Part shown: positions 12,367-58,300 of the stretch, piece after piece
How positions within the stretch are numbered: the first letter of the stretch is position 1
Layout: each line of letters opens with the position of its first letter
From: Girardia tigrina
Lineage: Eukaryota
Assembly: GCA_001938485.1 (NCBI GenBank)
Contig: MQRK01169544.1
Location: forward strand, 3,653-64,276
Length of the DNA: 60,624 bases
Direction: 5' to 3'
Notes under the pieces: model-generated
Told to the model about the DNA's origin: nothing
Seen by the model: only the letters and a program-made list of their open reading frames with translations
The model's database searches: none
Program-made: the position numbers and the translations under genes

Positions 12367-13472
12367 GGATAAAAATAAGACGACGCGTTTCGAGATAATA
12401 ATAATCCCATCATCAGGTCACAAAATGTACCGAGCAGGTACACTATATGGAAACTTGCCGAAAATAAATAAAATAATAATTCTCATAATATGAATCGAAA
12501 TTCTTCTGTAAAATAGAAAATTCATGTTTTGAAATTGATGAAGTGATCAAGAACGTTCCTCGATCTACTCGATAGCAATTAAGCAATAAATATTTCAGCG
12601 ATCCTCATTCTGTGACTACAGGAAAATGTTGATTTGAACAGTCTTTTGGCAAGGAGAAAGAGAAATTTATGAATAAATATAATAAGAGATAATTTATTAT
12701 TCAAAGTTCTGAAATATTCCCCGAAGAATAGAAAAGTCTTTAAAATGTTGGAAGTAAACTACGATAGAACATAAGTTGTGTGATTTTCATATAAAAATTT
12801 AGGTTAAACAGGTTATGAAATAAAGAGGTTGCATTTAATAATGGTGTCTTCATTGAATTATTACTTTATCATTTCAAAATTACAGATTAAATTTTAAAAT
12901 TAAGATTGCTATTTATTATTATTATTATTTATTTTATTTTTTTTGTTTTAATAATTTATGAAATTTTTATAATACATATGGTAACTATTTTTAAGAAAAA
13001 TAATATTAAAGTTCGATTTTATTGGTTTATTTGTTTTTATTTAACCCCTTGACTACAATTGGGACAATACGTCCCAAGCGATTTCAAAAAATTCAAGAAA
13101 GATAAATTAGTATGCGAAATCGGTTTTTTGGATGCACTCTTGCTCGCCATCCAAACAAACTACCTGTAAACTTGTAAGTACTTATTATCAGTTAGTTTTA
13201 CATTATTTTTTAATGTTTTTATTTAACATGAGTAAAAATATAGTTCGGTAGTCAAAAAGTTAAAAATATTTAATATTTATTATCAATATTTAATATTAAT
13301 CGTAATCGCAAAATACGGATTAGTAAACAGACACGGTCGAGTAAGTTTCTTGATCACTTCATCAATTTCAAGAGATGAATTTCCTATTTTACAGAAGAAT
13401 TTCGATTCATATTATGAGAAGTTTGATTTTGAATCATTGATATCAAGACAGTTGATTATCATCTAAAATAAA

Positions 13473-13515
<43 letters not shown>

Positions 13516-13741
13516 TTTTATATAAAGATTTTAAATATCATTAAAATACTTTTAAAAAAAGGAACAAACAACAAGTTTTTGAGACATATAATGTAATAGT
13601 TTTTGAACTATATAAATAATAGTTAATCACTTTATTTCATTGCACTGAAGATTCCGAAATGGTGAATAAATTGTGAATAAATTTAATATTCAAAAATGGC
13701 CTTTGTTTGCATTACTATAAAAATACCATTATCGGTTCTAG

Positions 13742-13778
<37 letters not shown>

Positions 13779-16700
13779 TAAAATATATAAGTAAATAAAA
13801 CTTTAAGAAATAAAAGATTAAATACAATTAAAAATAAAAATTTTAATTAAAAACATCCTTTCATTGAATTTTGTTCATTTTCTAAAAACGAACAAAGAAT
13901 TTTCATATTTATTCGGATGACTCATTCAGTCATTTTTTCACTATGATTGAACAAGTGTGTGTGACAATTACATGTATTAAATTTCAGTGATAGAATGAAA
14001 TGGCTCTTTCTGATTGGTCAACTAATCACAGCCAGCCTTGAACCAGACATATTTTAAAATTATGTCACTTATTTTTAGTTTTGCTTTCATGATATTAAAT
14101 TTTTGTTTTTATGCTATTGCAAAATTTTTCTGTTCACTAGCTGAAGTTGAAATTTGTTGTCGAACTTTTGATTGAAATTTAGTCGAGCATTTGATCGAAA
14201 ATTTATTAAGCCTTGAAATTGAATATTTGTCAGGCATTTAATTGAAAATTTGTCGAGCTTTGAATCGAAAATTTGTTGAGAATTTGATTTAAAATTTTGT
14301 TCGAATTTAGTAATTTGAATTTTTGTCAAAAGTCTGATTGAAATTTATTGTCCAAGGTTAATTATTTAAATGTTTTTTCGAACATTAATTTGATTGTTGA
14401 AGTTCGTCGAACAGTAATAATATTGAAATTTTATTGAAATTAGTGGCTGATTATTTGAAATTTTGTAAAACCTTTGATTTATTTAAGAAAATTTATCAAA
14501 CTGTTACTTTTTTCATTATGAATTACGTATTGTACTAAATCAGAGAGAAAAAAATTACGATTCGATGGGTTAACATTTATTCTTCACAATAAAATGGGCC
14601 TAGCAGGAACACAAAATCCCGAATTTATACCCGACACTGCCATTCTACCGCTATCACCGTCCGGTCTTCGGAGACACCTGGGGATCAGGCTAAATAGGTA
14701 ATATCCAAAATATTTGTTTTGTGAAGATTTACCCAATGTTTCACAAAGAAAGACAAAATTAATATTAATAATAAAAATAACTGCTTGGGGATCAATATGA
14801 CGGATATCAAGATTTCTCCAAGAATTTCTTCTGGAACTATATCAAGTCCTTTTCCTGTTTATTTCAATTTTTAAAGTTTTTAATATTGTGCTTTTAAAAA
14901 CAGAAAATCCAGTCTCTCTATGCTTATAAGTTAATTCCATTAGTGTAAATAGAGGAAATATTATTCTTTGTTTCCAAATTTTCTTCAGTCTTTGTATATG
15001 TAGCATCTCGTTATCCTTTGGTCATCAGAAATTTCAGCCACCATTTTTTAAGTTGTTTGTAAATCTAATTCTTCATTATTAGCAATCCCTTTTATAAAGA
15101 AATGTTTATCCATACCTTTTCTATGGGTTTAGTGCTTCAAGTTGGAAATTTATCTTTTTCAGATGTTTTGGTTAGAATTTTCGTCTGATACTGAAATTCA
15201 TCACTTATTTTAAAAACTGAATAGTCATAGGTAAAACATTTCTATGGTTCACCTCAACATCAACCCTCTATGTAAGATATAATTTCACCATCCCTAAAAA
15301 GTATAAACATTCATTATATAATAAATTCGTTTTAAGAAACACTCTAAATTAAGTTTACCGTTCAAGTAAGTATATTATATATTTTATAAAAAATTTTGCA
15401 ATAATCTAAAAAATATTTTGATGTGAATATTTTCTTCACAAAATAAGCTAGAAGAGACATCTTTAAAGAATAAAAGACGGTTTAATTTACTTTTCCTTTG
15501 CTCATTGGAGTTATTGGATTTTTCGTACCTCAAGTTGATAAAAGGAATATTTATAATATAAAAAGACCGCAAGATCTTTTTCTTAATTTTCTTCTCTGAG
15601 AAACCGATGAAAGGAATAGGTTTTACGAACTGATCTGCGAGCACTGCACGCACCCAGCAGCAAAATGACTCTTAATTATTTCTTTCCAAACATTATTTAT
15701 TCAAACTAATGAGCCGAAAAATGATCGAACATTTTGAGAGAGACATCGCGCAACTGATAAAGACTTTCTAATAACGAAATGTCTTTGATGAAAGACGCGG
15801 CGAGAGTCTGGATTCAATTTTTATCAATTTCAATCAGTTTCTGATTGAATGGAAGTGATAAAACTAATACGTTTTCATCAACAAAAATTTTCTGGATGTA
15901 TTCTGTACATTTTCATTTTATTGTACAAGAATATACTTCCTCTACCTGATTGAATTTTAAACAATTTTTCCTTTAATGTTTTAATAAGAATTGTTAGATC
16001 TAATTGTAATTATTTCTTACGTACCCGTATGCTCCGTTGAGTTATCCGCGATATTGCTGAAAGTACTCTCATTGTTGACAATCTCTTAATTAGCAAAAGT
16101 GTCGTTTAGGAATTTATTCGATATAATGCTGTTATTCAGGTTTGAAACCCATAAGACCTCTAGAAATGTTTCAAAGGTTCAATTATCCTTAAATAAGTAC
16201 TTAAATTAGCACGAGAGGCTAACTTATTTACTTTCAAGACATCAAATGGGTGATTGGAAACGCTTTAAGATTTCAAGATTTCGCAAAACATCCGTCTTGA
16301 AGCCATAGAGACTTATTCATTCGGCCTATTGAATATAATCAATATGACACTTTCAATTATGATGAGACAGCTGATGTCTATAAGCATAAATTGTCTTAAT
16401 CCACCCAACCTTAGCAATTGAATATCATGCAGCGAACACCTCCGTGAAGGTACTTTTCTATGCTATCATGATTGCTCTATTAGGTAAAGTAATGCTGTAC
16501 ACTGTATTTTCGAATTTAGTAATACCTTATCTCGCCCTTCTATTTTGTTTACAGATAAGTGTTTTGTACTTATAATAAATAACAATGAAGTTGAACTTAA
16601 ATTTGTTAGTCTAGGAATCTTTTGTTCCAATGCCACATCCTACTGAACAAGGCATAATAAGAAACCTAATATGTAAAACAATGAAAAATAGATGTAAAAA

Positions 16701-19700
16701 AAAATTCGAATGATGTAGGTGAAATATTTTAACAAAAATAAAAAAAACTTAGTAGTTCATTTACAAAGATACAATAACGCCAAATACAACAGTCAAATGA
16801 AAATTATGAGTAATATGATTCCATCAAAATGGATGCAAATTAGTGAGGTAGGCAATATCCCCGTGCGGGAGATTACGGGAGGCAGGAGACCCAGTGTCAG
16901 TAGTGACGTTTGTTCAATATCATTTTATACCATCTTTTATTATCACACTCTAACGATCAGGCATTTAATGATCCCCCTTGTAGATCTAGTTTCAGTAGTG
17001 ACATTTTTCAATATTATTAAATGTTTATTATCACACTCTATCGATCAAGCATATAATGGCCCATTTATGCCATAATAAATCGAAAATGTACACCATAAAT
17101 TGGTAAATTTGCGTGCATTCATTTTATATATTTTTATGAAAATTGCATTGACTTAAGAGCTTAATATGGCTTTCATATGTTTTGAAATTTTTAAAAACGT
17201 CCTAAAGCTAATAAGATGAACCATTGTGAAATCTATAGTGGGATTGACAAGTAACGCCTGTAGTTATAGGAATAACTGTAATTTATTATTTAAATAGAAT
17301 TTATGCATTTAATAAATATGAAAAGAAAGAATATTGCATGGGTTTTCTTTAAAATTTGCCACCAGTTTCTTAAGTCAACCAGGAGACACATTAACTGATT
17401 CCATAAAGTACACTCGCTGGATTAAAGCCATAACTTCACCTATTCGCCCATTAAGTTCTTCCGATTTTCTAGTAATTTCAAGAAGCCCCAGAGAAAAAAG
17501 TTTCATGGTATGAAATTAGGACTTCTAGGAAAATTATCATTATTAACATCACATTTACATTTTTTTACAGTTTATTCTGTGCTGAGTTACATTTGTTTAA
17601 AGTATAGGTTCGAAAACCTGCATCGATTTTGCAACAACCTAATAATATTATTTATATTTACATTTATATCATCTGTTATTATTGATAAAAGATTTGTTAA
17701 AAACTTGTCCTTTCGTTTCTGTAGATGGATACAATTTTCATGATCTTCTTTACAAATGGACACAAAGTCCTAACAGATCTGTGGAACATGATCCGGATTT
17801 AACTTTGTCTCAATTTCATCTGATGAAAATTTTTGAATCAAAATCAACCAAAGTAATCGCCGGAAGAGGTAGGTGAATTTATATTATGAATAAAAATTAA
17901 TAATAGGATCCAATTATACAGGTAAATTTTCGATTTTGGTTGTCGAATTTATGCTTAAAAGAAATATCGGATACTTTATGATACAACAATATCTTCCATG
18001 TAGTTTACTGGTGATACTTTCTTGGGTTGGGTTTTGGATAAATCGAGAAGCCACATCTGATAGAATCACCTTAGGTCTGTTTACAGATTTATGAAAATTA
18101 ATTATTTCTTTTGTAGGAGTAACAACAGTCTTGACAATGGCATTTTCAAACGTTGATAATAAAAAAGACCTACCTAGAGTGCCATATGCAACTGCTTTAG
18201 ATATATATGTCAATGGATGTTTCACGTTCGTCACAGCTACCATAATTCAGTTTGCTATGGTTCATTATTTTACTAAACAAGGATACGGAGACCCAATATA
18301 TAATGAAATTTCTAGAACTAAAATGGTAAAATAAATAAAATAATAAATGAATAAATAAAATCTGAGTTTTGCAACTTGATGGTTCCTAAAGAGAAATCGA
18401 TATTACATCCTCTATGAATAAAAACCCTGATGTGTTTAAAAACTTTAAAGTGCAATATTAAAGGCAACTTTGAATTAAATTTAAAAACTTAATATCACAT
18501 CACATTAAACTCAAATAGTAATCAAAATTTAGTAATCAATATGTCATGCCTTTGCCACAGTGTTCTGGTATTATTTATGAATATAGATATAATCGAGTGA
18601 TGTTCTAAGCATTGAAGAAAGTGACTTCTTTCTGCATAAACGTATTGTGTAAACGATTCTGCGTCAAGATTTTGACAGTTGTTAGGAGAGAGTATCGTGT
18701 AAAACATTGCTAATTAAGATCCCTTTCTATAAAATGAATATTAAAACGAAACTTAGTATGTCTTGATTAGCATGATTTCATACAATCAATCTTATAATCG
18801 TTAGTTTGAATTTAAAGAGATGAATTCAAGAATTAGGGACCTGATGATAATGGTTGGGTCGTCGAAATATATAGATATTGAAAGGATATTTTAAAATCGA
18901 TCCGTTTTGTCAATTTGTGTAATCGATTACATTGAACTTCACATTTATATACAGGTGAATCGAAACATTAGTATTCAACCATAGAACGGTGGTGCCCAAA
19001 CTTATTTGGCCAAACACCCCGTTCCCAGAAAAAAATTTACCCCGCATCCCTTAGAAATTTATTTTTTGCAATTGTAATAGCAGGTAAACAGAAATACATA
19101 TGTATTAATGTTTCTACCTTTTCTTGTAAAGTACAGTAAAGAAAGATGTAAATTTGAAACAAAGATGTTTGAAAGGATGAAAATTTTAATTGAACTAAAA
19201 ATGTACAAGTAATACAAAAACGTACAAACATTTGAAATCATCTTAATGAGAAGGATGAATTTGATATGTTGCTTCAAATTTAAAAATCATCCGCTCTATT
19301 TTTTTCGTCATTAATCTTAAATCAGCACGATTGACTACTTGTTTCTCTTCTTGTCATTAAATGGTTTACCGCACTGAATCCACGTTCCACTAACTGTGAT
19401 GAAGAAAATGCAATTAAGAACTTTTGAATAACAGTTCATATTCTAGGAATCTTTGTTTGTAGCCAGAATTGTTGGTAGTCCCATTTTAACTCATTATTTG
19501 TACTTACGTCCATCAGTTCTTCTCGTAAAAAGGGAGATTCTTCTGTGTTTACACTTTAAAAAATCCAAAATCTAATCATGAATGTTCATTTTAAAAATAC
19601 CATTAAATCGTTAATTAGAATCTGAATGCAGTACACCAAAGTGCTTGCGAAAAAAAGTATGTATTTATCTTTGTTTTCGGCTCCTGATAAATTTTTGAAC

Positions 19701-21430
19701 TGGTTCAGTTCCCCTTGTTTGTGCCGAAGGAGTTTAGGGAAAATGCAGGTAACGAGTTAACGTCCAGTATGTTGTTTAATGGATAATTCTTTAGTTTTGC
19801 GTATTGTTTGATGCATCAACTTCGTTTGACGAAATACACCATTTAAAAGGCTAAAGAAATATTAAGCATTATGGGTGAAACACATAATTCAATTTTTCGC
19901 AATCTTCTCTTCAATTTTATGCTTTAATGCCCCCTTATAGTTATTTATCGCCCCAAAAGGTAACAGTGGTCATCACAGCCCCCTGGATTGTTATTTTTGT
20001 TAATTATTATCAATAATATGCCAGAGGCACATAATTGGGCGGAGATCAGAAGACTTGCCAAAATTTATCTGACTGTGGATGAAACTATTTTAGCGTTCAT
20101 ACGAATCCTGTTTCAGGGAAATCGTGGAACAGACAGAATGAAATGGACATGAAAAACCAGATCATCGATCAACAGTCACTCAAGAAGAAGAGCTGGTAGG
20201 ATTCAATTGCAATCTATGCCGAAAGAACTACAATACCAAAGGATGGCTCATCAGACATTTCAGAATTTCTCATAAAATTTAAGAAGAATTATTAGTCCAA
20301 ATATTTTTGAGCAGAACTAATCAGTCTAATCGGTCTAGGCAATAAAGGAATAAATGCAATGCCAGAAGACAACGTAACTCAAGTACCGATCGTCGATCTG
20401 AATGCTGTAGCAACAGGAGAGTCAGAAGCGAGTCCATTAGACGTCCATCTAGACTACCGCCTTAGAGATCTAATCGCGAGAGGAAACTTCAGATGCCCAT
20501 TTACGGATGTCTAAAGTCCACGTACACAGCCAAATGAATGCAGAATAATGGGACTGCTACCCATAACTGATCGTTTCTCACTTGATTGTCAAAGGGTACA
20601 CGGAAGCGAAAGGCTGACGTCCCGTAGGAGGCCTATCTGGGAGCTTATAGATTTATTTGGTTTGGCTCAATACCATTCTTTAAAGGGATGATAGGCCCAG
20701 TTATTCGCAAGACAAAAATGGTTATAATTATTTGAAATCTTTTGTGATACAAAATCTTATCAAACTATTTTTTTCAAATCAAATATACAATCAAATATAA
20801 ATATTGTTCCATTAAATAAAATTAAAATTTAATTTACACAATTTAATTTTAATTAAGTTAATTAAAGTTCAACATATGTTTTCGTATGTAATAAATTAAT
20901 CCGTGGATCAGAATTAAAATTTAAATTTCAAAAACGTATTTTTTTAAAAAAAAATCAATTTTAATTTCCTTCTGCGAACAAAAGCAAAAAAACGATCGTC
21001 CTTTCGAACTCGCAACTAATTCTCACAAAATAAATCTAATGTCATTTTCCAAGTTGTATTTTTTTAATAAATATTTAGAAATTGAAAAGAAAATTTAAAA
21101 AAATAATTGCATTTATTTTTTGTTGTTGAAGAAAATTTTTTATTAATTAGTTTTTTTTAATTTAATAAGTTAGTTTTTTCTATTTTACAGCATGATCCGT
21201 GGGTTCTGAGGAAACATTTCGTTGCGCGGAGACGACAGACAAAATGTTTACTAGACTGTTGGTACTGTTTGAAGCATGATATAAAATACAAAACTAATAG
21301 AACGTTGCAAACAGACCGAGACGTTAACTCTGTGAGTAGAATTGATAGAATTAGTCGAATATTATTCCCAATGGCTTTTGCTTGCTTCAACTTTTGCTAC
21401 TGGGTGTATTATATTTATATAACGGAATGA
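10927..21430 (+). CDS. GABA-A-type Cys-loop ligand-gated ion channel subunit (Grd/8916-like), 3' five exons
   Basis: Exons 10927-11009 (Cys loop), 17725-17868, 17907 or 17922-18074 (M1), 18117-18325 (M2-M3) and 21191-21430 (M4, stop). All introns are GT-AG with matching phases. Confidence 0.92.
11328..12363. repeat. (TA)n microsatellite surrounding an assembly gap (N 11344-12312)
   Basis: Seen directly. Other (TA)n tracts lie near 145, 3731, 13476, 13746, 34243, 35728, 38482 and 55288. Confidence 0.95.
12379..12419 (-). ncRNA. Minimal type I hammerhead ribozyme (intact)
   Basis: GAC-CTGATGA-T-GGGAT-tattatt-ATCTC-GAAA-CGCG-TC-GTC: both core boxes, 5-bp stem II, palindromic stem III ACGCGT, GUC triplet, stem I GAC/GTC. 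Confidence 0.85.
13045..13259. mobile_element. piggyBac-type MITE
   Basis: TTAA-ccccttgactac ... gtagtcaaaaag-TTAA. Confidence 0.7.
14143..14480. repeat. Degenerate ~23-bp minisatellite
   Basis: Units such as ttgattgaaatttagtcgagcat / ttgatcgaaaatttattaagcct / ttaattgaaaatttgtcgagctt. Confidence 0.7.
16886..17062. repeat. Two-copy tandem duplication (~95 bp)
   Basis: tcagtagtgac...tttattatcacactcta.cgatca.gcat.taatg occurs twice. Confidence 0.8.
17725..18325 (+). CDS. GABA receptor exons: loops B/F/C and M1-M3 (two tiny introns)
   Basis: GYNFHDLLYKW...; KRNIGYFMIQQYLPCSLLVILSWVGFWINREATSDRITLG|VTTVLTM...DLPRVPYATALDIY...QFAMVHYFTK. Confidence 0.95.
18370..18960 (+). mobile_element. Penelope-like 3' remnant (degenerate GIY-YIG plus pLTR); same family as 29800-30045
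   Basis: SGIIYEY...IEES..LHKRI peptide. DNA blocks attttgacagtt.ttaggagagagt.tcgtgt.aaacattg and gattagcatgatttcat are shared with 29800-30045 (-). Confidence 0.6.
18838..18876 (+). ncRNA. Minimal hammerhead ribozyme (degenerate)
   Basis: GAC-CTGATGA-T-AATGG-ttggg-TCGTC-GAAA-TATAT-A-GAT. Confidence 0.6.
18987..19970 (-). mobile_element. hAT (Charlie/Buster-like) remnant
   Basis: Dimerisation domain YQQFWLQ...KFLIAFSSSQLVERGFSAV, plus a TIR-like cggtggtgcccaaac. Confidence 0.75.
20030..20700 (+). mobile_element. LINE 3' fragment related to the 47567-51121 element
   Basis: FNCNLCRKNYNTKGWLIRH C2H2 finger. DYRLRDLIARGNFRCPF aligns with EYRLPDIKAKGKFQSPF at about 50870. Confidence 0.65.
21191..21430 (+). 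CDS. GABA receptor last exon (M4)
   Basis: tacag|HDPW...DVNSVSRIDRISRILFPMAFACFNFCYWVYY...E-stop. Confidence 0.93.
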   Translation, partial: HDPWVLRKHFVARRRQTKCLLDCWYCLKHDIKYKTNRTLQTDRDVNSVSRIDRISRILFPMAFACFNFCYWVYYIYITE

Positions 21431-23400: not shown

Positions 23401-23442
23401 ATTATTATTTCTATGTAAACATCAACCTTTCAATGAATTAAA

Positions 23443-25724: not shown

Positions 25725-28153
25725 ATTGGATGAATCACTTTGGAAATTTAAGCTTTGTTTTGTAACTATCCTTTCATGATATACCGAAATATTTCTAGAA
25801 ATAGTGAAATAAGTCTTATAATTCACCTTATGAGGAGTTAGTTAAAATTTTCAATTAGCCAAATGATTTAAGATTTTTTAAATTTTAAAAAAATGAATAA
25901 ATTTTTGTATTGAATTGTGATCTTGCAGATAATGAAAATGGCATAAACGCTACTAACACACCTTATCTCTGTTTCTTCAATTTTTATGTGATCAAAAATA
26001 GATCTACTTATTTTCGATTGAATGTGCTCAGTTATTCTGGTGCAGATATGATAATTTGCAAACTATAAATTTAATTTTAAACTAGTAAAGTCAGGATAAA
26101 GTTACCTTTAATTCAAAATATCTTCATAATATTGTAATAAAGATTCCTTCCCAAAGAAAGTAAAAAATAGTACACATTATTTCTGTGTCAATAGTTTTGT
26201 CTGGATGTTTTTTCTTCAGAATTTTCTTCAAATTTAAAACATCGTTTGTATTTATACTAATGTAAATGATCAATAATGATCTTCTGTTTACTAAAACCGA
26301 AAACCAGTAACATATTTTTAAATTTGTTAAGTGACTTTACTTAATCAAATTTTAATTTTTAATTTTTAATTTCTAATTTTAATTTTTTTTATATTTTATA
26401 TTTTATTTTTAACATTGTCAATAATTGTTCTTATAATTAAATTCTTATTTATTTTATATTTTATATTTTATATTTTTTATTTTATATTTTAAATTTTATT
26501 TTATTTTTTACAATTACATTTGATTATAAAAATTTCAAAAGAATAAAAACCAAAAGAATTAAAACCATGAATTACATAAATTTTGTTTTCGTATTCTTAA
26601 TTTTGCAATATTTTTTCATTATTTTTTCACCCGTGAAGATTATTTTAACCTGTCGTTCATCACAGAAAAGAATGGAAAAATTTATAAACCTAAAATGATC
26701 TAAGCCTCCCAGATTAAGAAGATTATTTTTTTCCCGATTGATAGTTATATTTTCCCAACGGGAAAAGTAAAATTATACATAAATTTCCCTAAAGGGATAA
26801 AATGTTTTGTACATTTCAATCAGATTGTATGGATTCTCTAAATGGGATTTAGAAATTATCAATTCACTTAGAAATTTTTTTTCTCGTAGCCATATGTAAT
26901 CGAATTCAATATCACATAGTTCATCTCAGAAAAGCGAAGATATATCATAATAAATTTAACAGCATACAGAGGGTTAACAAAATAATGAAAACACCAAAGA
27001 ATCAAAAAAATATATTTTAATAAAATATTGATCTACCTTTTGCGAGAATTAAAGCCTCAAATCTTCGTGGAACGGACTATATCAAATTATGAATTGTTTA
27101 CAAAGGAATTTTAATCTGATCTTCTATTAAAACATCCACTTCTTTTAGAGTCGATGGCTGCTGAAATGAAGTTTTTACTTAAATCTCTAAAATCGACAAT
27201 AAAGGCTAAATAATATTAAAGTCCGGGCATTGTGTGGCCTAATAGGGTTCTCATCTTCATTAGAATATTCCTTGTGCAGTTTTTTAACAATTCTAGCTGC
27301 ATAGATTGGTGTATGTTATCTTGAAAGATGGAGTTCGCATCCAGAAATAGTACTGAACTCTGGTCGCCAAAAATTCATTGAGTCTAAAGTGTTAATTTTT
27401 TTCCATTCTTTTTTGAAAGCTTTTACTCAATCAATTTTCTTCAAACTTGGTACACTTACTGATACTTGATGACAATAAATGATTGTGGTTAAATTTGATC
27501 GAAAAAAACTTTTTAAGGTCCCAAAATGGGAAAAATGGAATATTAAGAAAATTAAATGGGTTTTCTTTACATTTATTTATATCACAATTTGAATTGTCAC
27601 TAGAATAATTCTCCGTAAAACTTGCGTAGCTCGTCATTGTTCTTGATTGATAATCTTTAATAATACAGGTATATATATTTGCTAAGTTTTTTAATAAAAT
27701 GCTAAGTAATTAATTTTTTTAAATTTTTTAATTATTTTTTAGCATTTAAAAAAATTTAAAAAAATTAAAAAAAACTATTATTATTCAAACAAATTTAAAT
27801 TACTATTTAATTATTACAAAAATAATTTATACTTTAAATTTAAAATAATTTTTATTTATTTTAAGAAAATATTATTAAAATATTATTTATGAAATATTAG
27901 TTTAATTTTAAAGTGATTATTTAAATTTTAATAATTGATTGAATAACCCGACGTTTTAAAATATTTAAGATAGCAATCTTCCATCTGGGTGGGAGAAACA
28001 CAATCCTAAAAGATCAACACACAAATAAACACCATTCAAAAATATTCCTCACGGAAAATTTGGAGTTCCAGAACAATATTAATTAAAAATGATCTACTTA
28101 TAAATTGAAAGTAGTTTATATTAACTTTTATTGTGTTTTAAAATTTTTTTTAA

Positions 28154-29673: not shown

Positions 29674-29799
29674 CTAACCAACTATACAGACATTGAAAAA
29701 AATCCCAAAAAGAGCAAAGGTCTTTGAAAAAGACATTGAATTATAATGTTTGATTATTGATTTAATAACAAAAGTCATCCATTAACAAATATATTCCAA

Positions 29800-29838
29800 G
29801 ACAATATATTTCGGCGAATCAACCATCATCTTCAGGTT
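29800..29838 (-). ncRNA. Minimal hammerhead ribozyme (same family as 18838)
   Basis: AAC-CTGAAGA-T-GATGG-ttgat-TCGCC-GAAA-TATAT-T-GTC. Confidence 0.6.
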
Positions 29839-30045
29839 ACTGATTAATAATTTAATTCACCTGTATATAAATACAAAAATAATGATTGCGTAATTGATTC
29901 CATGAAATCATGCTAATCACAAATTCTCAATAAGCTGATTAAGACTTTCGATCAAACATTGATTTTAGGGAAATATGCCCTAATTAACAATGTTTCACAC
30001 GACACTCTCTCCTAATAACTGTCAAAATGCTTACATCGAACATGA
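29800..30045 (-). mobile_element. Penelope-like 3' end / pLTR remnant
   Basis: Homologous to 18670-18960 and carries the hammerhead. Confidence 0.6.
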
Positions 30046-30049
30046 AAAT

Positions 30050-30620
30050 TATAAATATTAATATTACATTGGTTCTACTATTACAGAGAATGGAGAAACG
30101 GAACAAGAAATCAAAAATCGGATTGGTGTATCAACAAGCGCAATGACTATGCTTAGCACATTTTTGAACATCAAAGAAATCAATCTGAAGAGCAGAATAA
30201 AAATCACTAAGGCTATAGTCTAGCAGCAGTTTTCCATTGATGCGAGAGTTGGAAATTAAATCCGAGGAGCATGGATATACTTAAAGCATTTGAAATGAAA
30301 TTCTACAAGAGAATGCTGAAGATTACGCGGAAAGAAAAGAAGGCCAACGACTTTGTCTGGAAGAGAGTGAAGAGAATGGAGGAACGGATAATAGGTAAAA
30401 GACGGGTATCAATAGAAGAGATCATCAAGAGTAGGAAGTTAAATTCTTCGGACATCAGAAAAGAAAACAAGCACTAGCAAAAGTTATTATTGAAGGAAGA
30501 GTGGAAGGAGAAAGATTAAGACGATTTAAAGGAATGGAGTAGATGGAACATGGAAGGTCTGAGAAGACAGGCTACAAAAAGAGAAATTTGTATAATTGGG
30601 TGTACTCACAACCCAACGGT
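30050..30620 (+). mobile_element. RTE-clade LINE 3' fragment
   Basis: YIGSTITENGETEQEIKNRIG, CESW, AFEMKFYKRMLKI and IIEGRVEG motifs. Confidence 0.8.
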
Positions 30621-30967
30621 TAAGGTCCCAAAAAACAAGAAAAGTATCACATTTACATTTTTTCGCATGTTCCACAATATTGCTTTTTTTACTCTTTTTT
30701 CAATTATCTTCTTGAAGTCATTTACGGAGAGGACGGGCAGTCTCTTCAATGTATGTGGCATAGTACTCAATACATTTATATTCATAAACAATATCAGAAC
30801 AAAGTGTTAAAGGTGTACTAGATTTATTTCTGAACATATTTTGAATTTTATGAGATCACGATATAATTTTTAAATTTAATTCATTGTAAGCTGCTTTTAA
30901 CTATGCATTTTTAAAGTTTTTTAAATTCTTCCGAATAAGATGCAATTAAGTAATATTTAGGTATATT

Positions 30968-31370
30968 ACTAACGGATAACATGAAATAGTAGGACACCTA
31001 CTATTTTAATAGTAGGTGGAAAAAAAATTGAAAAGCCGCCCAATATTGGTTTACACCTACTATTTGGTGCTTTTGTTTTGANNNNNNNNNNNNNNNNNNN
31101 NNNNNNNNNNNNNNNNNNNNNNNNNNNNNNNNNNNNNNNNNNNNNNNNNNNNNNNNNNNNNNNNNNNNNNNNNNNNNNNNNNNNNNNNNNNNNNNNNNNN
31201 NNNNNNNNNNNNNNNNNNNNNNNNNNNNNNNNNNNNNNNNNNNNNNNNNAAAAACGATACACCTACTATTTGATTCCACCTACTATTTTAATAGTAGGCG
31301 GAAAATTTTTTGAAAACTTCATTACACCTACTATTTCATGTCCACCTACTATTTGATGTTATCCGTTAGT
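30968..31370. mobile_element. MITE with internal cacctactattt repeats (spans an N gap)
   Basis: TIR actaacggataacat / atgttatccgttagt, with the repeat unit in both orientations. Confidence 0.8.
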
Positions 31371-32570
31371 GTACCTTCGGTTTATTTCTTAGAACCATCA
31401 GAAAAAGCAAAACTCTGATTTTTCAAACCATCTTTCGAAAAAAAATCTTATCACTTTTTCTTTTATTAATTTTTTAAGAAAATATTTAGAAAAACAATTC
31501 TGATTTCACAAGGAACTTAGTTTATTAACACTTTTTACAGTTTTAAGAAAAGCTCAAGACAACGATGTCATTTTTATTTCGCTCAACAAGTTTCATAAGC
31601 AAAAAGATTCTGCTATGACAAACAAGTGTACTTCATTCTTAGAAATAATCAAAAATAAAAGATTATGTTTAGAATTTGAACATAATTTAAGTTTTATCTT
31701 GAACTTCATGGACATCAAATACTTGTTGTAGCCTCGCTAGCGTCAATGCTTCATGAAAAGAGCTAACTGAAAACGTGTTTCAGTGAACTCCTTTAAAGTA
31801 AAAGAATAAAGGTAAATATGTATAAAACTTGTATTTTTATACAATATAAATAAACATATATAACAAAAAAAATCACATACGAGAGAGAGAGAACGGCACA
31901 GATAAATCTCGATTTCGCTTTGTGTTTGTTGTTCAAAGGTTACAAGGAATGATCTTCTGTTGTAACGATATCGATGGAAACGTCAGAGAATCATTCGGTT
32001 GCACAACGAGATTTTGAGAAAATAGATCACATGAAGAGGAGCACTTTCAGGTGGAATATTGATAAATTGGCTGGCAGAAAATTCCTTTACGAACCGATTT
32101 TACAAGAAAACGCCCCGCAGGCAATATAGTATAATTGTAAACAGTAATATTAATGATTGTTTTTATCGATTGTTTTTATATATATAATTTTTATATACAT
32201 ATAATTTTATATATAATTTACTATATATAATTTATATATAATAATTGACTGGGTCACCACACTTCATAAATAGATAATATATAAATGAAAAATTAATATA
32301 TCCCGCCTAAAATAAAAATGGAGAAAAGTATATCATCAAGTGAATGATGAAAATATAAATTAATGAAAATTATTTTAACTGTCATTTTTATTTATTTTTT
32401 TGCTTTTCATTTTGATTTTTATATTTTCTGTCAATATATAACAAACGAAAAGAGGTTGTCGCCAGAGAAGCGATGTAAGACATACGTCAATTTGTCTCTT
32501 TTAATTGACATTTTAATGAGTATAAATTAATGAGATAAAAATATAATGCATTTAATTTAGAAGCGAAATA

Positions 32571-35725: not shown

Positions 35726-35763
<38 letters not shown>

Positions 35764-38700: not shown

Positions 38701-41700
38701 TGTCGTGTTCAAATCCGTTTGCTGCCAGAGACTTTAATGTTGTGAATTGTTTTGATCGACTTAATTTATTTGTATGGAAACCCGCACTCATTAGGGTGAA
38801 AATTATCGATCGGCGTTTGGTTATTAACCAATTGGGGGCCGCATTCTTATGGGCCCAAATGCCGACAACTGCCCCCATCGGAAAAGAAATTTAAAGGAGT
38901 TTTCAATATTCATTTTGATTTCAATTTTTCCTTCTTTAAGGTAGGCTTTAATGAAAAAATATAAATTTCACTTAACGCACTTTTTGAGACGCCTTAATTT
39001 GAAGCCAAATATTATAAATATCTATATTGTGTCAAAGTAGAATCCTTTCTTAAAGTTAATTCAACCAATTCACTAGAATGTACAGAAGAAGACAAGAATT
39101 GCACCTTCTGTCAGATCAGTCGCAGTAAACAAAGTTTATTAAAGTCATTAATTTGTGCTTATAACAATGAATTCAACTTCGAATATCGAAAATGATATCA
39201 ACACCCCTAACACAAAATATTTTAAAATATTTCCTACATTAAAATATTACAGAAGAAATTTTACCGTAAAAAAATATGTTTTATAAATTAAAATATTAGA
39301 AAATTTCAAGGTTGAAAATATTTTAAATTAAAGTCTAAATGAGAATTTTATTGTAAAAACATCATCATAAAAATGAAAATTTGTTAAAATAAAATTTTAC
39401 AAGAATATAAAATGAAATGAAAACTTAGGTTAAGATTTTTTTATTAAAACAAAAATTTTATAATAATAAAAATGGAAGAATTTAGTTTATGATCTTAAAA
39501 AATACGTTTAACAATTAAAATAGAAACTCTATAATTTGAAGATTTCATGTATGAAGATTTTTAAAATGAATCAAAATGAAAGAATTTTAAGAAAACTTTT
39601 AAAGGATAAAAATTTAATAAAATAAATGTTGCAAAACTAATTTTTGAAATTTCCAAAAAAAATAAATAATAAATTAAGCATTCGTATTTATTATTTCTTA
39701 TCTTTATGTATAAATGGTTTGTACAAAAGAAAAAAGGACTGAAAGAAAAATTTTCGAAAAATATGTTAATGTTGTAACAATAAAATTTTGAATAATGTTG
39801 ATTCTTTTTTAAACTAAGATTCGAAAAATCATCTAGAACCTAACAGGGTATATTAAACAGAGTTACTTTTCCATTTAATACATAAAAAATACATTCATAA
39901 ATAAAATACAATTTTTTAAACATCATTTTTTCCAATTTTTACTTTTACTTTTACCGTAATGTAATTTTAGCTATGAACATTCAATATTTAAAATTAATGA
40001 TAAAATTTCTTTTCAAGGCACTGGTTCTTTTAATATACTAAGAGAACTTGATATGACAGTAATTCCAATGGATGTTTGCAATTCCTCTTTATTCTACAAC
40101 GGTGCCTTAGTGGACAGTATGCTATGTTCAGGAATCGTGGAAGGAATTCAAGGACCCTGTAATGGAGACAGTGGGGGTCCATTAATGTGTAAAAAATCTG
40201 GAACAGTAAATTGGAATTTAGTTGGAGTTGTTTCGTTTGCAAAAGCTTGTGCAAGTATGTATTTTTTCATACATGAATATAAATAAATATAAATTACATT
40301 ATATAGAGGGGCACAAGAAAACTCGGTTTTTTTATTTAAAAAAAGTAATAGTAATAAGTCCGAATTGTTACAAATATGCACCGGGATGTAAGATATTGCT
40401 TTAGAGATTATCATGTAGGCGGCCCATTTCTCGGCCTAACTTGTAACTGGTTTGCACAGCCAAGAACTCTTTTAGGAACATTTTCGCTTGTTCAACGGAA
40501 ATAATATTATTAATAAAAAATTTTTTTTATAAAAACAACCACGTTTTTCAAGCATTACCAATGCACTAAAAAGAGGAAAATAATTTTTTTTCTAGACATG
40601 TGCGAAATTTTATACCNNNNNNNNNNNNNNNNNNNNNNNNNNNNNNNNNNNNNNNNNNNNNNNNNNGGAAAATAATTTTTTTTCTAGACATGTGCGAAAT
40701 TTTATACCTAACCAAAAACGTGGGGCGGATTTCTGAATTACTGCTATTAGTAACTGCTATTTCCTCTTTACTGCTTTTTAGTAAATCGATTATTTCTATG
40801 CCCCACGTTTTTGGTTAGGTATAAAATTTCTCACATGTCTAGAAAAAAATTATTTTCCTATTTTTAGTGCATTGGTAATGCTTGAAAAACGTGGTTGTTT
40901 TTATAAAAAAATTTTTTTATCAATAATATTATTTAACTATTTTTAGTTATCATTTACGAATTTTTTTTTCAAAATTTTTTTTATCAAATTGTATTGTTAT
41001 CGGAAGCAAGCCTGTATACAAAAATTCAGCTTAATTGGATAACTGAAAGTGGTCGAAAAATCAATCGCAAGATTTGTTCCAGACAGACAAACAGACAAAC
41101 AGACAAGAAAGCAAGCTAATAAAAACGTGGTAAAAAACGTGGTAAAAAATATTCAAATTTACTTGTACCAGTAAATTATTAATTGCAACAGAAATGCAGT
41201 TATTAAAAAATGTGCTTATTTTGGCACTCCTTTATCTGAATTTGAAAAAGAATTTATTAATAAAAAATTAATGTTTGAGATCTTGGTATCAGCACAAAAT
41301 TCATCCTAATAAGAACTATTTATATATTCGAAATAATACAACAATCAATTTAAATCTCGTATTATATGTAGATTATTATATTCCTGTGAAATTCGACTAT
41401 TTATAACAATTTAATATTTTCAATTTATTTTCTGATTTGGAGAGATACATTTCAAAATTTACTCATAATTTTGTAAGAGCAAAAACAATAACAACACCAA
41501 AATATTTATTCAATGTAACTGCAAGATTTCATTCAAGTCAAATGGCGCGCATTTATGTTCATTTAAACAAAATTAATATCAACGATATTGCTACATTCCT
41601 CTTCAAATCTTTGATCCAACTCGTAGTCCCTCAAATACGCAGACGGCCGCCTACGCCGAGTTGATCGTCGCGATCCAGTTCCTTCATCTGACAACGTTGG

Positions 41701-44700
41701 ATAGATTTCGTCGACCGATAACTCTCCCTCCCGCAGCTCGTCGGAACTCGAATCATTCCTTCATCCATCCGACTCAATGGCATCCTTGATCGGTACGCTC
41801 ACTTTCCTTATATCTCTCACGTGTCGATTGATTCCGTCCACATCCACGCTAAAATTGGAATTCACGCCGGTTATTGTCCCTTTTTGCCACGCTTCAGAAC
41901 AGCGAACATTTGGAGGTTTCACTTTTACCCGCTCACCAACAGTGTAACTCACTTCGACGTCTCGTACATTCGGTGCAACCTCTCCCTGTCTTAACATCCT
42001 CCATCGGTACCAGAACAGCTCCACCTGCGGAGATGCCCTCTTTCCAGTTCGAGGGGCGACGTTATACCAATAAACGGCATCACGTGAATTTATGTCTGCT
42101 CTCGCCATTGTTCTCTTTACCGTCCGATGTACCCGTTCGACCACACCATTGCCGCTCGGCTTGTAAGCGCATCGGAAATGCAACTTTACTTTCGACTCTT
42201 TACACAGCTCCTGAAACGTCTCAGATCTGAAAGTGTTCCAATTGTCTGCTAAAACCACCTGTGGCGGCCCAAACTCAAAATATTTGACTGAAATACCTTT
42301 ATAGCTCTTCTGATAATTCCCCGTTCACCTCTCTCCAGATGGAATAACGCGAGCAACAGTCTAGGATTGTCAAGAAGAGCTTCCTATTGTGATGCGTGAA
42401 ATCCGTCGCCAAGGTATTCCACACCTCGTCATTTGTTAACTTCCCTTCTCGATCTGAACGGAATGCGAGTCTATCGAATTACATTCGTCACAATTCTGAA
42501 TTACCCTTTTTATATCGCCTTTATTCACGTGGAATCCTTGTCGAATTAAAATGTTGTGCTTCTCTCAACTCCGAAATGATGTTTTGAATGCTCACGACGG
42601 ATATCTGTGTCAGTGAGCTTCGTATCATTTGCCATAATTACAATCTCTCTATGACTCCGGTCTAACCACGAACTTCTTATCCGTTTTAAAGCGTCAGCTC
42701 TGTTCAATTCCGAGGGTGTCCAAATGGGTTTCAATTTCACGTTATAACTTTCCAAATTCTCCATGATGGTCATTAATCTCCTTCTAACTAACATCTCATT
42801 CATTCAGGTTACTTTGATCTTCTTTTCTCTGTGCAGAACCTCACTCAACCAGCCAAAGATAGATGCAGAGTCAGTAACGATATTCAATTCACACACTCCC
42901 CATTTTAATGCCAAATTTATTACCCTCACGACCGCCTCGAGTTCAGTAACATTGATGTGTGCACATTCAACCTCGCGTCGTAACCAACAGCCGTCCTGTA
43001 CAATGTTTCTTGCAATCTCCAATACGCATCCTATTGCAATTTTACTCGCATCACACCATACTTTGCCAGATTTCTCACTTCTCGGGACGTGCCAGACACC
43101 GTTTACTGGATCATCATTCCTCACTCGTTGAATTGTATCTTCCAACATTGTTCGTATATCTTCAGATACTGATTCTTGCCAACGATATCGATTGCATTTT
43201 CTTTTTATGAAATTTGCAGATACCCTCAACTATCCTGCGATTGGATAATGACTAATTAACTGTCCACACAACGAAAATACACCCTTTTTCGTTAAACGAC
43301 CGACAATTTCCGGAACGGTGCTTCCTCTGGTCCACATGACTGTTCCATCTTTCTCATAAATTTGTAGACTTAACAACTTCGATCCGATGAAATCCGATGT
43401 TTCTTTGCACTCCAAACTGAAACACTTTAGATGCTCAACAACTTCTTCTACCGAAACAGTTGAAGTTGATGGCGACAAAATAACAGCACTGATAAAATCT
43501 AATCCACATATGACGACAAGAGAAGATATGACGTTGCAGAGACTCTGGAAATATCAAAATCAAGTGTTGGAAGTCATTTAAAGAAACTTGGATTCGTCAG
43601 TAAACTCGATATGTGGTTACCACATGAACTGAAAGAAATTCATTTTGTGAAACGTATAGACATTTGCGATTCCCTTTTGAACCGAGAACAAAGTGATCAT
43701 TTTTGAAGCGCTTGATTACGGGTGACGAAAAGTGGATTGTTTACAACAATGTGGAACGTCGACGATCATGGGAAAAACATAGTTGGCCTGCCAAAACGAT
43801 CCCAAAAGCAGAAATTCGCCAAAGGAAGGTTATGCTTTCCGTCTGGTGGGATTTTAAAGGAATTGTGCTTTTTGAACTCCTTCCGAGGAATGAAACCATC
43901 AATTCAGACAGATATTGTGGTCATCTGGAGAAATTGGCTCATTCAATTCAACAGGAACGTCCTGAATTGGCAAATCGAAAAGGAATTGTAATTTAGAATG
44001 ATAACGCAAGACCGCATACAAGTTTGACCACCCGCCAGAAACTCTTATCACTGGGTTGGGAGGTTTTGCCGCACACACCGTATTCTCCAGACTTGGCCCC
44101 ATCGGATTTTCACTTATTTAGATCACTGCAGAATTCCTTAAACAGAAAAACATTCGCCAGTGATGATGACATCAAATCGTTCCTAGACGGCTTTTTTGCT
44201 GAAAAAGGCAAAGGTTTTTATGAATCAGGAATAATGAAGCTACCGGAAAGGTGGAAGAGAGTGATTAAAAATAATGGACAGTATATCGTGTAAAAATATT
44301 TGTGCATCCATGTCATCTTTTGATAATAAATATTTTAGTAAAAAACGCAATGACTTTTTGGCCAACCCAATATATAAATAAAATGACCATGACAAAATCT
44401 TCAAAAATTAAATATTATATTATCAATATTTGTAGCAGAGTATTTGAACTTGAAAATCCCGTTCTTCTACATTCTTTTAACAATTTAAATTATGACCAGC
44501 TATATTACTCCCATTATCCAATCAGATTTACACTTTAACCCGTTTTTAGAGATGACCGAATGTCTCTCATGTGTATGTGATTTTATAACCATTGCAAATA
44601 TATTTATAAACAAGGTTGAAGCACAGATAGTGTCACGAATTTTATAATATTGACAACAATTTAAATACTATAAAATATATTTTTTATCATTAAACTAATT

Positions 44701-52415: not shown

Positions 52416-52479
52416 AAGAACAAAGAATCGTATATGCATTAGTTCTACAAGTACTAATAGCCTTAGATATTTTTTATCA

Positions 52480-53580: not shown

Positions 53581-55282
53581 ATGGGACAATATTTCACTCG
53601 TTTGTCGTATTACGAGAGACATGACAGCGACCGACACGGTGACAAGTTCCAGGACCTCACAACTTTGCCGCCTGAATTGAGTCTCGCGATTCTCTCCAAT
53701 TTGAATGCCACTGATTTATGTCTGGCAGGATGCGTGTGGAGAGAGTTGGCGCACGATGAGATGTTGTGGAAAGGGTTCGGAATTATGTCTCTATTTATAT
53801 ATTTTCTGCCAAATTCACGAATTAGGCAAAACTTAAAATATTTTTTCATTGAATTAGGAAATTAATGTTAAAAATATCTGCATTTAATATGAATAATTGT
53901 TTGAAAAATACAAACGTTCAATTCAGCTTGCCTCCAAGAAAAATGTAACTATGAATAAAAATTTTACATTTTGAGTCTATTTGACATAATTAATTGAGAT
54001 TTTTTCTTATCATATTTATAATAAATATTATTTAATAAATATTTTTAATTGAGAAATTTTCATATTAAATTGAAAATTGTTCATATAGTCAGGAACAAAT
54101 CGAAATAGTTCATGAATTCGGCAAGTACACCGATTGAGCTCGCATTCAAAATTTAAACTCTTGACAAAAAACTTTATGAAATGTGTTGTCTTGCATTCTC
54201 GGCGCACGTGGCCCGTTTCCCCACATGCGTAACATGTGATTTTCCTTTCTCGCTTACATTCACTGCTTCTTTACAGTTCTAACATGTGTTGCTTTTCCGT
54301 AAAGGAGGTCGTCTCTCAAATGTTTCCGTTTCCCTCATTTAATTTCCTGCTGTGCTTTCTCTTTTTACCGCTTCCCTATATGTTGATCTTACCGCATGAA
54401 TCGGTTTTTCCTATCTCCGGATTTCATCCACTTTCTTTATCACGTTCTTTATTTCCGGTATCTTCTTTATCTCCCTGAATTTAATCTCCTTTTTCACATC
54501 GCTATCCTTTGATCCGTGAATTAGAATACATCTCTCTATTTCCTCCTTTGTCCATTGATGTTTTATTAATTTCTCTGCTAATTTACTTGCTTCAGCAAAG
54601 TACTCTTCTACCGATTCTGCAGTCCTCTCGAAATTTAAGACCTCTCCTAAGTCTTCCATCAATGTGCTTTTCTTTAGAAAGGCTTCTCGAAGTCGGGATT
54701 CATATCATTTTATATCCACAGATACACTTTCATATATTGGTATTAACTCGTGGGATAATAAATATATCACCAATATTTCTTGAATATTCTCCAGAATCTT
54801 TGCTATCTTGAAATATCGAGCACAAGCCAATATGAAAGTTTCGACATTGTCCTGTCTCCGATATCTTTCCGGTAGAAGTCTCGAAACCAACTGTTCCGAG
54901 CTGCTGGCTGTAGTCACCAAAGCTCCTAACAACACCATTTCAGCTAACTGTTGCCGATTTCACGAATTCAGCATAACATATTGTATTGAAAAGATTTTTA
55001 TTTTTAACACCGATCAAAATTCGTAAAGACACAACTGGAATATTATCGAATTGATTCAGTTTAACGAATGTCAATTTCCATTTTTATAACGCGCACCGTT
55101 ATCTATAAAAATGTTAAATTTTGTCAAAATATTAACTGTGAATCCTGTACCTGTGATAACGATGTATACCTCTTAGGGTTATCACTATGCCTGCTATGCG
55201 CGTTATCTATACATAAAAAGGGATTCCAAAAAGTAAGAGCTGCGCGTTATACAATAGGTGCACGTTATCTACCGGAAAATAC

Positions 55283-55323
<41 letters not shown>

Positions 55324-58300
55324 AAAATGAAGAAAAACGCCATTTAAAAAGTTTTTTAATTTCGCAAAACATGTTTCGCCATTACTGCATCATCAGTTGT
55401 GAAGCAAATTTCAAATTACAAGTCATTTATATGGCGCATTGACTATTACGTAATTAATCTTTTCTTTAATTAATATTAAAAGATTTTAATATGATTGGAT
55501 AATTCACTTTGAAATCGAATCAGCGGGCAAGATTTTATTTTTGGATGTATTAATTGAAAGAAAATCGAAGGGCTATGAAACTGAAATATTTCGAAAGAGT
55601 ACTGACACGGGTTTATACAATAATCCTATGAGTTTCTGTGATCCCAAGTACAATAAAAATATGGTGAAAGGATTAATTCACAGAATATGGAATTTATCTT
55701 CTACGTTTTAAATTCCATTTTTTAAATTACTTTTCTAAAAACTTATGTAGATAAATTATTTGAACTTAATTATAAATATTCAAAAATTTAAAGTTCACCA
55801 AAAATTCCTAACAAAAATATTCACAGAAAATTATAATCAAAATGATATTATAAACTATCTAAAATGGTCATATAATCTGGAAATATAATATAATGTGTTT
55901 TTTACTCTTTTCGTTTTATTTCTCTTATTTTTTACATGTTGTTACGAATTTTAACTCTAAATATTTTGTCGATGGGCGCTTTTTTCGAGTTACCATTTAA
56001 GATATTGGATAATAATGGCAAAATGTTGACAAAAATTAATTAAAGGACAAAGTAAAGCCGTTTCAAATCTTAAAATCCTTAATTAAAATTAAAAACTGTT
56101 AAATTTTTTAAATCTTTCAGAATATGGTATTTTGATTTTTTGTTTGTACTCTTCAATGTTTTCTATGACATCCAAAGTACTGCTGCCAATCGATGACCAA
56201 CTGTCCCGAAATCGGTTTAATCGACAAAGTTTCTGAACATGACGATGGTTCCTTACAAAGTTTGAAAATGTCCAATAGTACAATTTCATGAACATAATCG
56301 CGACAAGCGAGATAAAGAAAACCTACTAACCAATGCTGCTTCAAATCCGGTACACTCACCTGTAATATTGCCGGTATTTAAAGCAGTTGTATCAAATCAC
56401 ATAGCTTTTATATACTTTTAAAGTACTATTCCTCAAGTATCTTCAATACAGCATTTCTCATTGTCTCTCCTGTCCCGGTGCTTATTCTGGGAACTCCAAG
56501 TAGTTGATCTACATTGACACCAGACACTAGAACTGCCAGCATGTATAGCACATCATGGCCAACAATATCAAGTAGTATTTTTCTGCCCCATTGATTCGTT
56601 AAATGAACTTCATTGGCTTCGGGATTGCTTGCAAATCACGCATTTCTCTCTTCTCTAATCTGACAATAAAATTTCATCCTGGCAGTTCGGATTGATTGTT
56701 GGTTGATTGCTAGTAACGACCTAGACTTTTGGCGGTCGTGACTAAAAGAAAAGGAGCCTTATGATCACTGACGTTCACCCTCTTGAAGGCTGAAGCTAAG
56801 CTTTATGATACAACACTGTGGAGTTGGATTTGCTTTGGTATTTTCTTAGTTGGGGATTCGTGTAGAAATGTTAGATCTTCATTTTCCCTTGACTCTGATA
56901 GAATCCCATTTGCTGCTGAATAACAGCCCAAGTGACTTCAGTTGATGCATCAGATAAAATTCTAGGTTTTTATCAATATTGCATAGAATTAAGAATCAAA
57001 TTAAAGGTGATCTTTTCTGACATTCGGAATATCTATCAAACAACTATTAGGTGTATAACTTAGTTTTTTGGATTTTTTTGCAGAACAGACAAGTTTATTT
57101 ATATGACATAATAAGTTTTATTCTAATCAAAATATTTTCCATCGTTATTTATGACTTTCGACCATCTTTCAGGCAAATTATGAATTCCATCGAAAAAAAA
57201 GTTTTGGTCTTTTGATGCGATCCATTGTTCCAGCCATTTTTTATATGTTCCTGGTTTCTGAAGTGCTGGTCCCAAAGAGCGCTTTGCATTGATCGGAACA
57301 GATGATAATCTGATGGGGCACAATCTGGTGAATAGGCAGCATGCAGTAGAATTTCCCATTTAAGTGCTTCCAACGTGTTTTTTACTCTTCTTGCGACATG
57401 TGGCCGAGCATTGTTATGGAGCAAAATCACTGTGCGCTGTTTGTTGGCTGGAATAGGACGTTTTTCCTTCAATGCATCGTTCAATTTCATTAACTGTTGT
57501 TGGTAACGTTCTGTATTAAAAGTTTCATTCGAATTCAGCAGCTCATAGTACAGTACACCTTTCTGATCCCACCAAATGCACAACATAACCTTGCTTCCAT
57601 GAATGTTTCTTTTTGCTGTTGACGTGGACTGTTCGCCGGGATGAACCCACAATTTCTTGCGTTTAGAGTTAACATAATAAATCAATTTTTCATCTCCAGT
57701 CACAATATTATGCAAAAACGACCATCTTCGTTGTCTTGTAAGCAGTGAATTGAATATCAGTAATCGACTTTCAATGTTGGCTTGATTCAATTCATGTGGT
57801 ATCAATTTTCCTTCTTTTTGAATCATTTTCATAGCATGTAGACGTTTACTTATGGCTGCTTGAGTAACATTTAACTGTTTTGCAAGCTCTTTCTTGGTTT
57901 GAGTAGAATCTTCCTTCAGTAATGATTCCAAATCTTCATCTTCGAATCTTTTTGGTTAACCGGAACGCTATTTGTTACTTATGTCGAAATCTCCACTTTT
58001 GAAACGTTTATACCAGTTCTCGCAAGTCTGTTGAGTTGGTGCATGTTGACCATAAGTTTCTTCAAGAAGCCGAAAACTGTCTGCATCTTTTTTCTTTTGA
58101 ATAAAGCAAAACAGTTGTGCTTCCCGCAAATGCTGTTTTGTTGGTATGAAAGTTGTCATGCTAAAACGTTATTAAAAATATGTTTATGACACATTTAAGG
58201 TCAATGACCTACTTAATGCCTCGATTTCAGTACTTTAAAAATCTGTACGTACGACTGTAAAATAATGCTTATTACAAAGGTTACACCATCTCTTAGAAAA

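Follow-up and report, generated by a model that had tools for sequence, protein, structure and literature searches.

Four minimal hammerhead ribozyme motifs lie within a 60,624-nt stretch of the Girardia tigrina genome (contig MQRK01169544.1, positions 3,653 to 64,276; hereafter the window), and they very probably mark the 3′ ends of truncated retroelements: three of Penelope-like elements (PLEs), and one of a likely retrozyme into which a NeSL-type long interspersed nuclear element (LINE) has inserted repeatedly at a single site. The motifs, named here by their first window position (Table 1), fall into three families, A and B being Penelope-like and C the likely retrozyme.

Four minimal hammerheads and the elements that carry them

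An original prediction, made from the sequence of the window alone, had placed four motifs of one shared architecture in it, and this was borne out by a scan for the complete set of features. All four possess the core CTGA(T/A)GA, an extra base between positions 9 and 10.1 that is T in every case, stem II, GAAA, a palindrome replacing stem III and a UH site. There are 20 loose core-to-GAAA matches in the window, exactly four of which combine the extra T, the closing C and a palindrome whose last base is T, while not even one such motif arose in any of 200 block-wise dinucleotide shuffles (1-kb blocks). The assembly (1.43 Gb, AT-rich, 255,254 contigs, possibly containing both haplotypes) was then scanned with the pattern CTGANGATN{8,22}CGAAANNNNTH, using the reversed pattern as control. 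The version with the extra T gave 43,450 matches compared with 214 for the control, and that with a non-T extra base 3,266 compared with 1,157. A chance origin of the motifs was ruled out by the shuffles and the genome count together, the motif frequency being far above the control. The high local ribozyme density that had been proposed did not hold up, because one motif per 33 kb predicts 1.8 in the window (Poisson P = 0.11 for the four seen), which is ordinary for this genome. A search of the window with the Rfam hammerhead families returned none at E ≤ 10.

Full pairing is found only in motif 12379; in each of the three families the majority form pairs. Motif 18838 has A in place of G10.1 and hence lacks the G10.1–C11.1 pair. 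It shares 70% identity over 263 nt with motif 29800, which places the two in one family and confirms the predicted number of three. Five palindromes occur genome-wide (ATATAT, ATTAAT, ACATGT, ACGCGT and ACTAGT). The architecture is that of the published minimal hammerhead of PLEs (Cervera and De la Peña 2014, PMC4209133) and is therefore an already known feature; the extra base, G10.1–C11.1 and the palindrome are described there as emergent features, a single motif gave no cleavage, and the supplement contains a Schmidtea row. The published model has two motifs cleaving as a dimer by way of the palindrome, and the co-varying palindromes across families would agree with it. Co-folding energies did not show the active fold. 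Further hammerhead families were seen genome-wide (e.g. at loci L016, L018 and L008), with stem II and palindrome GATG..CATC/ACATGT, GACGG..CCGTC/ATTAAT and GCC..GGC/ACTAGT, and families of different kinds often adjoin or nest in one another.

Every motif had been predicted to lie beside Penelope-like sequence. Motifs 18838, 29800 and 55361 terminate broken reverse transcriptase (RT)/GIY-YIG Penelope copies of two families; motif 12379 also has a Penelope protein scrap beside it, which comes from a different element and not from the family of that hammerhead. The same division was seen in loci fetched from the genome, where a same-strand Penelope protein match lies within 1.5 kb 5′ of the hammerhead in 31 of 33 family A and 17 of 21 family B stretches and in 2 of 75 of family C. 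The GIY-YIG pieces of the 29761–31565 remnant show 69% and 64% amino acid identity to an open reading frame (ORF) with a Pfam GIY-YIG domain (L005); the YVDD motif and thumb of family A were recognized by eye in L009, without a Pfam match. In family B, the 66 thumb codons 5′ of motif 55361 are 91–95% identical at the amino acid level to L023 and L019, and L023 carries RVT_1 and GIY-YIG in one ORF, the latter at E 0.001, below the cut-off. Families A and B are thus PLEs of the endonuclease-containing (EN+) type, with RT followed by a C-terminal GIY-YIG domain and a same-strand hammerhead in the 3′ repeat. Their linker displays no extra Cys cluster by eye, which fits Penelope/Poseidon as described in PMC8557442. 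The insert that splits the family A GIY-YIG frame at about 30071–30645 (+) is LINE-like, RTE-type by eye and without a Pfam match. Three more degraded pieces of GIY-YIG, with no strict hammerhead, lie at 25725–26059 (−), 44435–44617 (−) and 13293–13454 (+).

Table 1. Hammerhead motifs, element remnants and host genes in the window
Feature	Position	Strand	Details
Minimal type I hammerhead, family C (retrozyme)	12379..12419	−	stems I and II paired; palindrome ACGCGT; GUC site
Family C 3′ remnant, 110 nt	12365..12474	−	unit positions 594–651 and 1–about 50; terminal (TA)n; 97% identity to L076 unit
GIY-YIG C-terminus scrap of another Penelope family	12470..12563	−	abuts family C remnant; inverted twin 13337–13430 (+)
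Minimal hammerhead, family A, damaged	18838..18876	+	A10.1–C11.1; stem I mismatch; palindrome ATATAT; sense in intron 18325–21189
Old family A Penelope 3′ remnant	18427..18910	+	about 71% to genome copies; decayed GIY-YIG C-terminus 18656–18807
Minimal hammerhead, family A, damaged in stems I and II	29800..29838	−	palindrome ATATAT
Family A Penelope remnant	29761..31565	−	thumb piece 31565–31434; broken GIY-YIG 30930–30643 and 30071–29855; 3′ end with hammerhead
Minimal hammerhead, family B	55361..55403	−	stem I 6/7 pairs; stem II 2 pairs (family: 3); palindrome ACATGT
Family B Penelope remnant	55287..55709	−	RT thumb coding 200 nt (55709–55510) joined to 3′ end (55513–55287); terminal (TA)n
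Host Cys-loop receptor gene, part	10927..21421	+	exons 10927–11009, 17725–17866, 17920–18071, 18114–18324, 21190–21421; Pfam
Host FBXO8-like gene, part	53581..58922	+	exons 53581–53774 and 58796–58922

Family C and a LINE at its fixed site

The window carries merely the last 110 nt of the family C unit, of which 2,436 exact hammerheads occur genome-wide. At L076, two hammerheads stand at 651-nt spacing and the tail leads straight into the unit's own 5′ end. Exact tail-to-head junctions of this kind number 163 in the genome, and no arrays of more than two units were seen in this short-contig assembly. The unit has no RT or GIY-YIG of its own: 73 of the 75 upstream stretches are without Penelope protein, and both matches come from one locus, outside the unit, where they represent an unrelated scrap. 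The assignment of the GIY-YIG scrap beside motif 12379 depends on a weak tblastn match of its inverted twin (E 5e-4). No tRNA or Rfam RNA was found in three unit loci or in the scanned LINE flanks (14 loci and 28 loci). Contigs of runs guessed to be RNA cover the 110-nt remnant and show neither ends nor circles.

Family C copies show 5′ truncation and inversions, and their 3′ ends cluster at unit positions 50–69 and 80–89, often in (TA)n; such 3′ ends, 5′ truncation and inversions are the Penelope signature according to PMC8557442 and PMC11167929. The unit folds into two long hairpins with z −6.1, compared with −1.3 for the opposite strand. Pairing is kept by 15 of 16 variants common to at least three of 182 distinct segments and by 47 of 222 singletons (P 5.5e-9). 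For transitions alone the figures are 15 of 15 shared and 46 of 87 singletons (P 3e-4), and all 15 pairing-keeping shared variants are wobble exchanges, with no double changes. The 3′ regions of families A (L004:1473–1800) and B gave z −4.7 and −0.6, respectively, against shuffles. Being non-coding, tandem and structured, family C fits the non-LTR retrozyme (LTR, long terminal repeat) as defined in PMC7229834 and a 2026 preprint (bioRxiv 10.64898/2026.07.22.740005), and it likely represents a retrozyme that depends on Penelope enzymes for its copying. The prediction of several PLE or retrozyme-like families was accordingly sound: two of the Penelope families are of the autonomous type, and the third family is a retrozyme-like unit.

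A LINE of about 7 kb lies antisense to the family C unit at one fixed site. One copy of 7.0 kb, in contig G000:C213698 (7716 region, L181), has family C sequence on both flanks. The LINE protein combines an Ulp1 protease (PF02902, E 5.5e-12) and RVT_1 (PF00078, E 1e-20) in one element; its C-terminus shows, by eye and without a Pfam match, CCHC and a restriction-like tail, whose motif pattern we take to be of the PD..D.K type. By Ulp1 and RT this is a NeSL-type LINE, with sequence-specific but relaxed insertion. Among 43 distinct family C target sites in the loci, the LINE is joined to 14 and 19 stand empty; the other 10 comprise one with an inverted LINE end, two with a 300-nt insert of another kind, and a remainder of unit inversions or unrelated DNA. 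All 14 joined sites join at TCAGTA(T), with 13 different truncation points over 7 kb. The 11 LINE copies with both ends visible all differ in length (39–7,017 nt), and mostly 2–3 target bases are missing. Exact counts in the genome gave 201 occupied junctions, 103 empty sites and 513 LINE 3′ ends, from which the family C share of exact LINE 3′ ends is up to about 39%, an approximate value since the 3′-end pattern is slightly different. The hammerhead was ruled out as part of the LINE because it is antisense to it and the LINE's own ends fall inside the unit. An initial reading of the 651-nt unit as a LINE deletion derivative was dropped after the LINE 3′ flanks of 30 loci had been examined.

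Full-length copies (L181 and L045) begin right behind TCAGTA, with an ATG about 13 nt further on. TCAGT, on the strand opposite the hammerhead, resembles what we take to be the initiator consensus. Placed antisense just behind this motif, and with a start codon so close to its 5′ end (about 13 nt), the LINE may draw on a promoter of the retrozyme's opposite strand. At L077 (G000:C45476) and L180 (G000:C224516), a GC-richer insert of about 300 nt with no match to the LINE occupies the LINE's family C site and might be the tail end of another element that shares this target. L175:2104–2289 contains a short frame with a Walker-A-like motif, SF3 helicase-like by eye and without a Pfam match.

We found no earlier report of a retrozyme as a LINE target or as its commonest insertion site in a search that Repbase and subscription journals lay outside. 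On this evidence, the retrozyme family and the LINE preferring one site within it are well supported by sequence and probably new, although supplement file 1 of PMC4209133 and the preprint supplements may list family C.

Alternative explanations and further features of the window

Lone intronic hammerheads might cut host pre-mRNA, so that selection removes or degrades intact sense copies. The original prediction had favored this from the two best-preserved motifs being antisense and the sense intronic one degraded. The orientations are as described: in the introns of the Cys-loop receptor gene motif 12379 is antisense and motif 18838 sense, and motif 55361 is antisense in intron 1 of the FBXO8-like gene. 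The sense motif is the most damaged and the sole intact one is antisense, and the 2026 preprint describes retrozymes as depleted from Xenopus introns, orientation not being covered in the parts concerned. However, motif 55361 has stem II damage of its own, and motif 29800, although damaged, does not count as a sense intronic copy, only an ab initio exon scan, which detected no host gene there, and no RNA-based gene model being available for 21.4–41 kb. Outside the window, 79 stretches (718 kb) with 98 motifs were sampled, repeats masked and 249 of 869 candidate frames searched against Pfam. Nineteen motifs in ten genes could be assigned and 79 could not; the sample is small, partly inferred and enriched for inverted pairs. 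Intact motifs were 5 sense and 5 antisense and damaged ones 5 sense and 4 antisense; with the eight Pfam-backed genes only, the figures were 4/3 and 4/3. No orientation bias was thus seen among the 19, though so small a sample may hide a weak one. Exons were seen on both sides of only 5 of the 19 placed motifs, and two of the ten genes were named by eye, presumably as FN3-like (L122) and Arp3-like (L149). Intact sense copies do exist, one of them flanked on both sides by exons of an SLC12 gene (L170), and no cleavage was reported for a single motif in PMC4209133 or without the element's protein in PMC11167929. No earlier report on orientation bias of hammerheads in introns was found in the literature searched. 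We consider selection against sense intronic motifs unlikely.

Slightly less probable still is that family C is the terminal repeat of an autonomous Penelope whose coding part went unsampled. Its Penelope-type ends and inversions would agree with this, as would a stop-free frame of about 175 codons (L076:1420–2070) that opens at an ATG in the hammerhead core, as in the PAc element of PMC11167929; the stop-free run is 165, compared with a maximum of 155 in 2,000 shuffles. Against it, what follows the tail is the 5′ end of the unit itself and then another hammerhead, and Penelope protein is missing from nearly all upstream stretches. The frame shows no coding constraint, and a protein-coding role was ruled out by the missing synonymous excess (nonsynonymous to synonymous 17:5 for shared and 194:67 for private variants) and the lack of a Pfam match.

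Least probable of all, by a small margin, is that the link between LINE and retrozyme goes back to one old chance insertion that was copied along with the retrozyme and later suffered internal deletions. Chimera amplification did happen, since most of the LINE 3′ junctions listed are identical and about 12 of the 100 listed show one recurring variant. Against this reading, the 13 truncation points all meet the same target base, which deletions would not do; both main junction types are present with short and long LINE inserts; occupied and empty units share haplotypes; the LINE insert at L120 sits in a unit copy just 76% like the reference; and L077 and L180 hold a different insert at the identical site.

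Several points weigh against the reading of family C as a retrozyme targeted by this LINE. Tandem copies are a minority beside the single hammerheads. No Penelope terminal repeat homologous to the unit occurs among 8 loci of families A, B and D. The structure in the pairing test was derived from a single copy (L076), and the family C loci were picked as best hits or through junction patterns and are non-random. The LINE's restriction-like domain gives no Pfam hit. Nor is the specificity of the LINE strict. Among 30 loci selected through LINE DNA, its 3′ end joins the unit in 9, the flank is unrelated in 16 (15 distinct) and lies out of view in 5, so that 16 of the 25 visible 3′ flanks are unrelated. 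Its primary target may be collapsed rDNA, the target-site sample was enriched by the searches used to find loci, and some of the 201 junctions probably stem from chimera amplification.

As to the remainder of the window, the last four exons of the Cys-loop receptor gene are spliced in contigs of runs X1–X3, whose RNA origin is a guess, whereas its first exon is based on Pfam and splice signals only. A CUB-domain serine protease gene lies at 32706–40283 (+), its 5′ exons not found. An N gap precedes the window, which runs to the end of the contig, and a perfect 112-nt inverted match links the two window ends (1–112 and 60511–60622), the right copy being the 5′ end of a mariner-like element (59431–60398). 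Summed depth across the contigs of the runs peaks in repeats at 2000–2663 and 3328–4655, depth being a poor measure.

Proposed mechanism and comparison with known systems

Going by the published work, the two hammerheads of a tandem source copy would pair through their palindromes and cut multimeric RNA, the protein of the element probably assisting, whereas lone copies such as the four in the window would be largely silent; orientation in introns would therefore matter little. The two fixed 3′ ends, the 5′ truncation with inversion and the (TA)n sites suggest that Penelope RT and endonuclease copy family C RNA, and the preprint describes retrozymes as non-autonomous Penelope derivatives. The putative restriction-like endonuclease of the LINE would nick the unit DNA at CAGTAT-AA-TAACAC, and reverse transcription would be primed at the nicked site with loss of 2–3 target bases; some short LINE inserts were likely re-amplified later inside the unit. 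We lean towards a three-tier chain of parasites, in which Penelope would mobilize the retrozyme, the retrozyme would be the main target of the LINE, with about two thirds of the site-spanning copies filled, the LINE may use an opposite-strand promoter and its short inserts would ride Penelope-driven copying.

The literature proposes, and has not shown mechanistically, what family C adds in the form of sequence-level evidence for selection on a retrozyme RNA fold and for Penelope-like insertion. If the chain is real, retrozymes would be a new target class for restriction-like-endonuclease LINEs beside rDNA, tRNA, snRNA and spliced-leader genes, and the defined pair of nuclease and site would be testable in vitro and useful for site-specific retrotransposons as insertion tools.

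The motifs share with the minimal hammerheads of PMC4209133 the type I core, the extra base between 9 and 10.1, G10.1–C11.1 and the palindrome at 15.2–16.2, as well as many families per genome, mainly single motifs from truncated copies and opposite-strand pairs. They differ in number, 43,450 in 1.43 Gb compared with about 9,000 in Xenopus and 4,000 in coelacanth, counts made with different descriptors and thus not like for like. With the metazoan non-LTR retrozymes of PMC7229834 and the preprint, family C has in common the non-coding tandem unit, the type I hammerhead, a size inside their 51–972 bp range, monomers that far outnumber tandems and the proposed mobilization by Penelope. It differs in showing Penelope insertion marks and structure-keeping variants, in the lack of a homologous Penelope terminal repeat in the A, B and D loci, and in its LINE target site, which is unmentioned in the parts of PMC7229834 and the preprint covered here. 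The Poseidon element PAc of Anolis (PMC11167929) likewise has two adjacent 3′ ends (tail), AT-rich targets and an ATG in the hammerhead, but PAc is autonomous and family C is not.

The LINE resembles the NeSL clade, in particular the planarian LIN/R5 lineage (PMC4640811), in its Ulp1 protease and RT and in its fixed insertion site, 5′ truncation and relaxed specificity; the CCHC and restriction-like tail of that lineage may be shared as well, going by motifs seen by eye. Relaxed targeting of a repeat has precedent, because planarian LIN elements stray into other transposons, a few LIN25 and LIN26 copies recurring in Polinton, SINEL, piggyBac and GLT4 (S6 Fig of PMC4640811). The targets of that lineage, in contrast, are mainly 28S rDNA and tRNA genes, whereas the commonest site found here is a hammerhead retrozyme.

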